A DNA stretch of 64,000 nt from an uncultured Gammaproteobacteria bacterium (lineage in GTDB: Bacteria > Patescibacteriota > Patescibacteriia > Magasanikbacterales > UBA922), in contig OZ246405.1 in the NCBI GenBank assembly GCA_965231005.1, positions 610,709 to 674,708 on the forward strand. The letters are read 5' to 3'. The notes under the pieces are model-generated. The model was not told where the DNA came from, ran no database searches, and saw nothing but the letters and a program-made list of their open reading frames with translations. Position numbers and translations under genes: made by a program. Positions 4,484-5,524 of the stretch are shown here, piece by piece. Position 1 is the stretch's first letter, and each line of letters opens with the position of its first letter.

Positions 4484-4512
4484 TTGACAAAAGGGGTTTT
4501 TTGTGCTATACT
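4484..4512 (+). promoter_or_regulatory. sigma70-type promoter (TTGACA-N17-TGcTATACT) for the G+C-rich gene 4596-5423
   Basis: TTGACA at 4484-4489, a 17-nt spacer, then an extended -10 TGc-TATACT at 4504-4512. The -35 box sits in the loop of the hairpin AACCCCTT-GACA-AAGGGGTT followed by T-run. That hairpin can also serve as terminator of the upstream gene. Confidence 0.65.
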
Positions 4513-4595
4513 GTGTTGTTAGTAATCTATGCTCTGCCAAGAGTATTGATGCTACATCAAACGCAACAACACAGCTTTTCACGGAGGACAACACG

Positions 4596-5423
4596 ATGAA
4601 AGCAAAGCAGTTTGAGGGAAAGACGCACCTGATCGGTGAGGTCGAAGAAGCGTGGCTCGCTTTCTTCATGTGTGGCTATTTCGCCAACTCGCACCGGTGT
4701 GACCTGCCCACACGCCGCACCCGCCTGTACTTCAACGAGGCCGACAGCTACGAGGTTCGTGGTGAGGCAGCGGGGCATGAAGTCAGTCTGGTCGGTTTTG
4801 ACCCCGGTCGTGGCAGCAACATCGGCCGGCGCCGGTCGACATTTGCCAAGGTCATCGGCTTCCAGGTTCGTCAGTTGACGAGTTTCACCTGGCGATTCGA
4901 GGGCGCACGGTCTGGTGATCGCTGTGAGATCGCTGCCGAGCGTATCGACAACAACCGTTGGAAGGTTTCGTACCTCAGCGATGTGGCTGAGCGCGAGATC
5001 GAGACGCCCCTGTCCGCTTTCGTGCGGATGATCGATCCCGATTCGTTCCAGGTTATCAAGATCCATCTGGCGGAGTGGGTGGCTTGCGTCGCTGGAAAGG
5101 CTGCGCAGATCGCGCAGACCGGCTGCCACGCGTTCCACCCCGAAGTCTTCCGCGCGCTCGAAGAGCTCGCGGGTTTCTACAAGGATGGTGTTCGCATTGG
5201 TCGCTCGTCGTGTCCCTCGTACATGTCGCCGCGACGCGCGGAAGTCCCGCGCTGGTGGCAGACCATGCTCGACCTCCCGGTCGACGACGAGGAGCCGAGC
5301 TGGCGCGAGGGTCATGAGCTGCATGCGGCTTGGATCCTGGCTCACACGGACATTGTCCGAGGAAAGTACGGCAGCAATGCCAACAAGATCCTCGAGCGTG
5401 CTCGTCAGCGCGTGGCTGCGTAG
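4596..5423 (+). CDS. G+C-rich hypothetical protein (solitary foreign-composition cassette)
   Basis: ATG at 4596 is preceded by GGAGG (4583-4587). 275 aa, G/C-ending codons, no recognisable domain, no signal peptide. Flanked by the promoter at 4484 and the terminator at 5497. Confidence 0.7.
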   Translation: MKAKQFEGKTHLIGEVEEAWLAFFMCGYFANSHRCDLPTRRTRLYFNEADSYEVRGEAAGHEVSLVGFDPGRGSNIGRRRSTFAKVIGFQVRQLTSFTWRFEGARSGDRCEIAAERIDNNRWKVSYLSDVAEREIETPLSAFVRMIDPDSFQVIKIHLAEWVACVAGKAAQIAQTGCHAFHPEVFRALEELAGFYKDGVRIGRSSCPSYMSPRRAEVPRWWQTMLDLPVDDEEPSWREGHELHAAWILAHTDIVRGKYGSNANKILERARQRVAA

Positions 5424-5496
5424 ACCCAACAAGGAGACCCGAACTCTTTTCAAAGGTGATATCCAATCGGATACACGGAGGAGTTCGGGGATATCA

Positions 5497-5524
5497 AAAG
5501 AACACCTCAAAAGGTGTTTTTTTG
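5497..5524. terminator. bidirectional rho-independent terminator
   Basis: AAAAGAACACCT-CAAA-AGGTGTTTTTTT. The stem is 5501-5507/5512-5518, flanked by an A-run and a T-run. It lies between the convergent genes 4596-5423 (+) and 5535-5966 (-). Confidence 0.8.

Follow-up and report, generated by a model that had tools for sequence, protein, structure and literature searches.

A G+C-rich, Shine-Dalgarno-led single-gene cassette, probably acquired by horizontal transfer, in the chromosome of a Patescibacterium

Introduction

A solitary G+C-rich gene at positions 4596-5423 of a 64,000-nucleotide stretch of contig OZ246405.1 (hereafter, the window) is best read, together with its own expression signals, as a separately acquired unit, with others of its type occurring repeatedly in these genomes. 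Specifically, we assign a probability of about 70% to the interpretation that the segment from ~4453 to 5491 or 5503 (hereafter, the cassette) is a horizontally acquired, self-contained, single-gene transcription unit, similar to a moron or islet, in the chromosome of a bacterium from the Candidate Phyla Radiation (CPR). The window has a G+C content of ~35% and contains two G+C-rich stretches, i.e., the cassette gene and its immediate surroundings (4.55-5.49 kb) and a larger block at 17.8-28.6 kb (hereafter, the island), 12.3 kb away. A previous, sequence-only reading of the same stretch had described the open reading frame (ORF), promoter, hairpins, leader, GGAGG motif, terminator, and opposite-strand ORF, all of which we found where it had placed them, but it missed what is the strongest contrast of the locus, namely that the native genes lack Shine-Dalgarno (SD) sequences.

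A coding gene of foreign composition and initiation mode

The gene starts with ATG at 4596, ends with TAG at 5421-5423 on the forward strand, and encodes 275 amino acids (aa). Its G+C content was measured at 61.2%, lower than the ~65% estimated previously, with values of 0.63, 0.47, and 0.74 at the first, second, and third codon positions (GC1, GC2, and GC3), vs. a GC3 of ~0.23 overall for the native genes (0.22-0.27 in one comparison and 0.17-0.34 over all single genes measured); the pooled third positions of 15 native genes are 0.36 A, 0.10 C, 0.14 G, and 0.40 T. The G+C profile steps sharply from 0.32-0.36 up to position 4550 to 0.5-0.7 over 4600-5450 and then to 0.24 at 5500, and the relative synonymous codon usage (RSCU) of the cassette gene correlates negatively with that of the native gene pool (r = -0.55). 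That is, both composition and codon usage are atypical relative to the host genome, as is characteristic of horizontally acquired genes.

The difference is even more apparent in translation initiation. Any possible SD, defined as a 5-nt SD core before any in-frame start within the first 50 codons, was found for only 3 of 37 native genes of the window vs. 5-6 of the 6 G+C-rich genes (Fisher p = 5e-6). An SD is present for the cassette gene and for island genes 17792, 22113, 23825, and 25072; at island gene 19876, GGAGAGGAG overlaps the preceding stop codon. The native genes compared include, for instance, those at 567, 7227, 7982, 9080, and 28832-63497. The same split was evident, based on the database gene calls, at loci L002, L008, and L012 of other genomes, where genes of raised GC3 are SD-led and native genes are not; at locus L010 (52% G+C), which carries a member of the same protein family as the cassette, SD sequences occur throughout. 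It is possible that the SD was inherited from an SD-using donor or, alternatively, that it was retained because structured, G+C-rich mRNAs need it, and both accounts of the association between SD and G+C content fit an imported origin. Separately, an A+T-rich motif, TTGCTAATTGTTA(A/G)TTGCTAA, was found directly 5' of the TTG starts of two native genes (3883-3903 and 11607-11627), with 5 matches vs. 0 expected and degenerate copies at 11422-11442 and 11614-11641; it may represent a native, SD-independent leader or translation element.

High-G+C DNA yields long ORFs in several frames, and the opposite strand of the cassette does contain an ORF of 317 aa (4557-5510), which the sequence-only reading had considered as potentially the conserved coding frame. 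It is not conserved: in five homologues elsewhere the sense frame is wholly open, whereas the antisense frame is broken, with its longest open run spanning 64-246 codons. Nucleotide identity to the homologue of L002 is 0.60, 0.65, and 0.35 at codon positions 1, 2, and 3, respectively, and the closest informative pair of homologues (L002 and L019, 77% aa identity) showed dN = 0.14, dS = 0.75, and dN/dS = 0.19. Both the codon-position divergence and the dN/dS ratio fit the forward strand, and these comparisons indicate that the forward ORF is a real gene under purifying selection; the antisense candidate was dismissed on the same grounds.

The possibility that the real gene is the antisense ORF, or that the region is an assembly chimera, draws some support from the mere existence of that ORF and from the exact window protein being missing from the protein collection, where only a 99% variant is present. 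However, the SD and the promoter are both on the forward strand, the forward product yields a confident AlphaFold2 model, and homologues in other genomes show the same layout. Further, an independent metagenome assembly (L001) matched the window over 14,233 bp with two mismatches (99.986% identity), and since these 14.2 kb include the cassette junctions, an assembly chimera is ruled out. Hence, we regard this alternative as refuted for practical purposes. The two mismatches (5158 and 5181) are both in the cassette ORF, 23 nt apart, and nonsynonymous (L188P and K196Q). The probability that both would fall in the ORF by chance is ~0.003; they could reflect local hypervariability, relaxed constraint, or assembly error.

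Expression signals of the unit

The gene is preceded by a sigma-70-type promoter on the forward strand (4484-4512), composed of TTGACA (4484-4489), a 17-nt spacer, and the extended -10 element TGc-TATACT (4504-4512). With 11 of 12 consensus matches plus the TG, this was the top site of a consensus scan of 3800-6200. Its -35 hexamer extends over the last two stem bases and the loop of a bidirectional, terminator-like hairpin (4475-4501), the arms of which, AAAAACCCCTT (4475-4485) and AAGGGGTTTTT (4491-4501), pair perfectly over 11 bp around a loop of 5 nt. An A-run and a T-run border the hairpin, and its folding energy of -18.6 kcal/mol (z = -4.4) was matched by 0 of 200 shuffles. The hairpin probably ends transcription of the upstream neighbor, p176 (3904-4434), and insulates the cassette promoter. 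TTGACAA is palindromic and thus favors hairpins around the -35, and weaker versions of the arrangement were seen in L002 and L008.

The same promoter type is found 5' of the homologues in L002, L005, L006, L007, L008, and L018, and a cTTGACAAAA...TTTTTaTGcTATAnT promoter, followed by a leader of 80-200 nt, precedes nearly all G+C-rich, SD-led genes across the loci. It also precedes native genes of the window, e.g., at 7875(-), 7209(-), 36220(-), and 39939(-), and therefore represents the general strong promoter of the lineage rather than a signature of the cassettes.

The 5' leader (4519-4595, forward strand) measures ~77-83 nt from the predicted transcription start and carries the SD, GGAGG, at 4583-4587, 8 nt upstream of the ATG. 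Its fold is not significant (z = -1.2), and neither its sequence nor its length is conserved among homologues, for which reasons a riboswitch-like leader was dismissed for the cassette. Rfam searches of the leader and the 3' untranslated region returned no family, only sub-threshold matches on the terminator hairpin.

Past the end of the ORF, CCCGAACTC (5438-5446) pairs with GAGTTCGGG (5481-5489) to form a G+C-rich stem-loop that lacks a U-tract (5438-5490, forward strand). This hairpin would serve as a 3' stabilizer of the mRNA or as a donor-type terminator, recalls the tail-less terminators of high-G+C bacteria, and may have travelled along with the gene. It is followed by a bidirectional intrinsic terminator (5493-5526; 15 pairs and a T-run on each strand) that is common to the cassette and the convergent gene p143 (5535-5966, reverse strand); the whole 3' region, including both hairpins, folds with -45.6 kcal/mol (z = -8.5). 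A terminator of host style had been listed previously as part of the cassette layout. It is indeed present, although under the simplest reading it is probably the pre-existing host terminator of the convergent neighbors. With a promoter 5' and a terminator 3' of a single ORF, as determined by the consensus scan and folding, the cassette has the organization of an autonomous unit.

Two short motifs complete the picture. An SD-like motif, AACAAGGAG, lies 4 nt past the stop codon (5428-5436, forward strand) with no start codon after it, and L002, L012, and L007 have comparable motifs 3' of their stop codons. The motif may be the relic ribosome-binding site (RBS) of a lost downstream gene, which is the simplest idea, or an unexplained element. 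In addition, CACGGAGGA occurs in two identical copies, one at the RBS (4580-4588) and one in the 3' arm of the G+C-rich stem-loop (5474-5482).

Collectively, these signals suggest how the unit may operate. The T-run hairpin would block read-through from p176 while carrying the -35 of the near-consensus, extended -10 promoter; the ~77-nt leader, with a strong SD that is unlike the host genes, would recruit the ribosome to a structure-prone, G+C-rich mRNA; the stem-loop past the stop codon, lacking a U-tract, would stabilize or end the message; and the old bidirectional terminator common to the convergent neighbor would complete termination.

Host, syntenic relatives, and insertion junctions

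The upstream neighbor p176 has 126 homologues, and all the named ones are assigned to Parcubacteria, Magasanikbacteria, Uhrbacteria, Nomurabacteria, or 'Patescibacteria group', which argues that the host is a Patescibacterium (CPR); based on these gene sequences, it appears to be Parcubacteria-like. An identical p176 copy was found on a 1.23-Mb contig, and the sole match of a profile search of genome contigs was the already known contig of a metagenome-assembled genome (MAG) that is labeled 'uncultured Gammaproteobacteria'. We doubt this label, as the native genes at the locus are SD-less, its composition is A+T-rich, and its promoters are of the CPR type.

The gene order FtsA-FtsZ-NrdR-x-PK-PPDK-p176 is retained in four relatives (L012, L013, L014, and L015), and L012 retains L20-L35-IF3-SmpB as well. 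The cassette is absent from all four of these syntenic relatives, which share only ~69% identity in p176, so that the timing of the acquisition can be placed only coarsely. The p176-L20 interval varies in content across the relatives; that of L012, for instance, contains tRNA-Asp, TrmB, an SSF transporter, an RHH/ParE pair, and a different solitary G+C-rich ORF. Judged by this synteny, the place that the cassette occupies, with PPDK-p176 on one side and the tRNA-Asp / L20-L35-IF3 block on the other, is a variable hotspot.

The same hotspot holds, 3' of tRNA-Asp, another G+C-rich, SD-led cassette with a promoter in two of the relatives (L012, 13252-13752; L015, ~10004-10192). Its product (166 aa) has no family match, its leader is conserved (GAAGGyGCGTAA...CTTCCTCTTTGCCG), and its GC3, judged by eye, comes to 0.56 for the genome with 36% G+C vs. 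0.81 for that with 47%.

At the edges of the cassette, a 12-nt direct repeat is present on the forward strand, with the left copy (TATCAAAAAAAC, 4441-4452) being identical to the right copy (TATCAAAAGAAC, 5492-5503) at 11 of 12 positions. A repeat of this quality between two such short flanks was seen in 1.0-1.5% of controls. The left copy also perfectly complements the right arm of the downstream terminator (5516-5526). The repeat possibly represents a target-site duplication or microhomology at the insertion junction, and it is plausible that the ancestral site is obtained by removing 4453-5503. Once these 1051 bp are excised, the p176 stop would be followed after 6 nt by a perfect bidirectional terminator and then by the stop of the convergent p143; the predicted empty site thus reads p176 stop, TATCAAAA[A/G]AACACCTCAAAAGGTGTTTTTTTGAT, and p143. 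Under this junction model, the insert brought its own terminator-promoter module, which implies that the last donor already used CPR-type promoters.

A rare protein family that exceeds its surroundings in G+C content

The family to which the cassette protein belongs is very rare: 5.8 billion clustered proteins gave 2 matches, 1.84 billion representatives gave 14, including a spurious one, when searched by profile without filters, and a 14-sequence profile gave 5. Members of full length have ~340 aa, of which the last ~70 are missing from the window copy and, independently, from P0005. Consistent with the earlier statement that the product has no recognized motif, neither the protein nor the 14-member alignment matched Pfam, NCBIfam, PHROGs, PADLOC, or PDB sequence profiles, the only PADLOC hit being a spurious Cas8a match (E = 0.007) of one family member other than the window protein. 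No signal peptide was seen in the N-terminus, which was judged by eye only.

AlphaFold2 modeling with the family alignment (mean pLDDT 80, pTM 0.80) predicts an alpha/beta N-domain and a helical C-domain, and the product looks like a cytoplasmic two-domain protein on the basis of this model. The N-terminal half returned weak structural matches, many of them to helix-grip proteins such as Ups1, StART-like, AHSA1, polyketide cyclases, and the catalytic domains of Rieske proteins; that is, no established fold was matched, and the N-domain faintly resembles helix-grip proteins of the SRPBCC / START / Bet v 1-like kind. As for function, our guess would be an accessory one, in ligand binding or related to conflict.

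Family members occur in unrelated neighborhoods, with no conserved neighbors, in genomes of 27-52% G+C. The family gene is 4-29 G+C points above its flanks in 9 of 10 contexts, each with different neighbors: 0.61 vs. 0.35-0.38 in the window, 0.56 vs. 0.36 in L002, 0.56 vs. 0.36-0.375 in L005, 0.59 vs. 0.43 in L007, 0.56 vs. 0.44 in L008, 0.52 vs. 0.39-0.42 in L011, 0.59 vs. ~0.30 in L018, 0.58 vs. 0.52-0.54 in L010, and 0.38 vs. 0.26-0.28 in L006. The remaining context, L019, has 0.59 for both gene and flanks. The L006 copy, in a 27% G+C genome, is full-length and has a GC3 of 0.29 (i.e., it is ameliorated), which indicates that high G+C content is dispensable for function and that composition drifts toward that of the host.

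Two of these loci deserve additional description. In L019 (1-2755), a 3'-truncated P0003 (77% identical to P0002) adjoins a block of 60-64% G+C whose small, overlapping, SD-led genes, on the other strand, have no match among PHROGs or viruses. This block may represent a mobile element of donor type or, alternatively, a chimeric assembly. In L002 (11229-13542), two more G+C-rich genes, encoding 118 aa (forward strand) and 456 aa (reverse strand, no family match), stand beside the family member, each with its own consensus promoter and long leader, forming a mini-island near an nSTAND3/AAA ATPase gene.

It could alternatively be argued from this distribution that the cassette is not a recent import at all and instead represents a lineage-specific class of Patescibacteria genes in which high G+C content, SD, long leader, and 3' stem-loop are actively maintained, the purpose being expression under a regime of their own, e.g., translation that is SD-dependent and condition-specific, beside SD-independent bulk translation. 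The family is found almost only in low-G+C genomes with SD-less native genes, named Patescibacteria provide the nearest relatives of p176, 15 billion proteins revealed no donor from outside, and copies that have diverged to 28-50% identity hold a GC3 of 0.58-0.83 in hosts of 30-44% G+C. The coupling of G+C-richness to SD in four genomes and the homologous cassette of another family with a conserved leader in the same hotspot of L012 and L015 point in the same direction. However, the ameliorated yet full-length copy of L006 is at odds with active maintenance, and so is the other-family cassette, which is much less G+C-rich in L012 than in L015, tracking host G+C. In addition, the syntenic relatives lack the cassette, the neighbors differ for each family member, and we know of no mechanism that would keep GC3 50 points over the genomic equilibrium. 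Hence, we consider a maintained gene class unlikely and favor horizontal acquisition.

Comparison with the island and the question of a capture mechanism

The sequence-only reading had proposed that the cassette shares its layout with the island and that a repeated mechanism of capture, rather than a single block transfer, was responsible for both. The layout is shared by the island units with promoters at 17540 and 21724, which show a consensus extended promoter, a long leader, a strong SD, and a post-stop G+C-rich stem-loop, and it was seen again in other Patescibacteria genomes, both for homologues and for G+C-rich genes unrelated to them. It does not extend to the units at 23825 and 25072, which are without a consensus promoter, the only two consensus promoters of the island being those at 17540 and 21724. 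The RSCU of the cassette correlates with that of island genes 19876, 22113, 23825, and 25072 at r = 0.73-0.83, and with that of 17792 at r = 0.32. Accordingly, codon usage showed no clear difference for four of the five island genes, although any two G+C-rich gene sets correlate somewhat, and thus a common donor type is compatible with these data but unproven. The island proteins are membrane-anchored, secreted, or of low complexity, whereas the cassette protein looks cytoplasmic.

The island itself (17792-28593) encodes zinc-ribbon (MJ0042-type) repeats and membrane-anchored proteins rich in Ala and Pro. It also encodes a lipoprotein of 1173 aa, in which there are about 40 Cys-rich repeats and 18 matches to Pfam Dicty_CTDC. 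A G+C-rich hairpin follows each island gene, and three genes are also followed by an A+T-rich hairpin of the CTTTCTT...AAGAAAG type. The leaders of 22113 and 25072 share a ~150-nt element (21944-22090 and 24884-25030) that is 84% identical and in which one hairpin seems to covary (GGTAcgtTACC vs. GGCgtgttGCC). The element has no Rfam match, and it may be an undescribed cis-regulatory leader RNA of two cassettes.

As for capture, separate acquisition, as opposed to a single block, is reasonable given the relatives without the cassette, but machinery that could mediate it was not found among the window ORFs scanned. An integron-like, site-specific system with the 3' G+C-rich hairpins or the RBS-like motifs (AACAAGGAG and CACGGAGGA) as recombination sites would account for the imperfect hairpin of 50-70 nt behind every G+C-rich gene, the SD-like motif 3' of the stop in the window and three other loci, the occurrence of the 9-mer CACGGAGGA at both the RBS and the 3' hairpin, and the clustering of cassettes in the island and their recurrence in the hotspot. 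Further, the post-stop sequence ACCCAAC fits RYYYAAC; however, it has no GTTRRRY partner (the hairpin base is CCCGAAC/GTTCGGG), and, by direct reading, the 3' hairpins of the cassettes share no attC-like core. No integrase, recombinase, or transposase match was found among the window ORFs scanned (the scan left out six ORFs at 52.8-61.4 kb, as well as two shorter ones at 13539-13865 and 39082-39444). Motifs of the ACAAGGA type, moreover, are no rarity in the sequences at hand, promoters of their own set the cassette and two island units apart from integron cassettes, and the solitary cassette adjoins no array. There is, therefore, no evidence for a dedicated capture mechanism, and we regard an integron-like system as very unlikely.

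A related idea is that a pool of self-contained, G+C-rich, SD-dependent cassettes circulates among Patescibacteria of this group. In each, a consensus promoter and a long leader with a strong SD would lead into the ORF, and a post-stop SD-like motif and a G+C-rich hairpin would follow. Their composition would be kept, they would constitute a second translation regime alongside the SD-less native genes, and the RBS-like motifs would mark ORF swapping or capture. We view this idea as improbable.

Origin of the cassette and its likeness to known systems

Under the horizontal-acquisition hypothesis, the cassette would derive from a G+C-richer, SD-using background and would have landed in the hotspot, possibly within the left arm of the terminator, with a 12-bp duplication. 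Since it already has a CPR-type promoter, passage via other Patescibacteria or their mobile elements is the most likely route. Both gene transfers and genomic islands are frequently found in Patescibacteria, with horizontally transferred DNA making up as much as 13% of genome length (PMC12455944), and ~83% of detected transfers into Patescibacteria come from Patescibacteria (PMC12455944), with which the CPR-type promoter of the last donor agrees.

Searches for a donor in a named G+C-rich organism, plasmid, or phage returned no homologue in the protein collections or, with the full-length P0002 as the tblastn query, in plasmids and phages; the segment 3000-7500 gave no megablast match to phages; and profile searches of viral contigs with the family alignment (A1) and the L019 neighbor protein found no relatives. 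Two specific sources were also dismissed, that is, a eukaryotic host, as the SD and the promoter are bacterial, and an actinobacterial host (an idea based on Saccharibacteria), as the host of the cassette is Parcubacteria-like and no actinobacterial homologue was found.

Several observations weigh against an acquisition of this kind. No donor has been identified, and the one G+C-rich context of the family is the 2.7-kb contig L019, which carries a truncated copy and could be a chimera. Copies that are 28-50% identical should all be ameliorated if they had been inherited in A+T-rich genomes, and the G+C-rich reservoir that would otherwise be required is unseen. From promoter similarity it is not possible to tell whether the promoter was transferred or recruited. 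No empty p176/p143 site was found in a close relative, with a metagenome scan using p143 returning only relatives of 28-35% identity that are of no use as an empty site, and thus the junction model rests on a repeat with p ~0.01. Finally, the scan of window ORFs described above revealed no integrase or transposase.

Among the known systems close to the cassette are phage morons, which are reportedly (Hendrix and colleagues) autonomous promoter-gene-terminator units of atypical composition inserted between genes. Like these, the cassette consists of a single ORF with its own promoter and terminator and deviant composition, lies between otherwise adjacent genes, and is absent from relatives. Unlike morons, it resides in a bacterial chromosome, where its neighbors are PPDK, p176, tRNA-Asp, and L20-L35-IF3, with no phage genes nearby; it has no match in phage, viral, or PHROG collections; and it is G+C-richer, not A+T-richer, than its host. 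The cassette also resembles the transferred genes and islands described in Patescibacteria (PMC12455944) in having a Patescibacterium host, atypical G+C content, a variable region as its location, and a donor of the often unsampled kind, but it is a 1-kb, single-gene unit and not a multi-gene island. The SD contrast and the promoter/leader/hairpin layout did not turn up in a text search of that study, which gave 0 occurrences for promoters and for Shine-Dalgarno (PMC12455944). With integron cassettes, it shares the compact, single-ORF format, the imperfect inverted repeat just past the stop codon, and the presence of similar units 12 kb away; in contrast to them, it has its own near-consensus promoter and no attC core, attI, or Pc, and no IntI-type integrase was found among the window ORFs scanned, a search that did not cover the rest of the 1.23-Mb genome.

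Other features of the window

Apart from the two G+C-rich stretches, the window contains PK, PPDK, tRNA-Asp, L20-L35-IF3, transfer-messenger RNA (tmRNA), SmpB, and a glycan-synthesis cluster. The tag peptide of the tmRNA (8532-8929) is unusually long and does not end in the usual ALAA (ANLVNRVKSAIANAFSTPALATAVA). At 40198-42199, a gene for an extracytoplasmic function (ECF)-type sigma factor overlaps a DUF5667 gene, the product of which may be an anti-sigma factor; this pair may drive a class of non-sigma-70 promoters in the host.

Implications

The genomes of ultra-small episymbionts are thought to be heavily reliant on imported genes, and the cassette would represent a clean, well-delimited gene acquisition in such a bacterium. 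As a transfer it is fairly ordinary and overturns nothing; the parts that go beyond the ordinary and are worth follow-up are the dichotomy between SD-less and SD-led genes and the orphan protein family. The SD split, seen in four genomes, provides a simple sequence marker of foreign genes in these MAGs, and it raises the question of how two modes of translation initiation coexist. Given that the family is very rare, has a confident predicted structure but no known relative, and occurs exclusively in cassettes of this kind, its protein qualifies as a candidate accessory factor in the biology of CPR bacteria.

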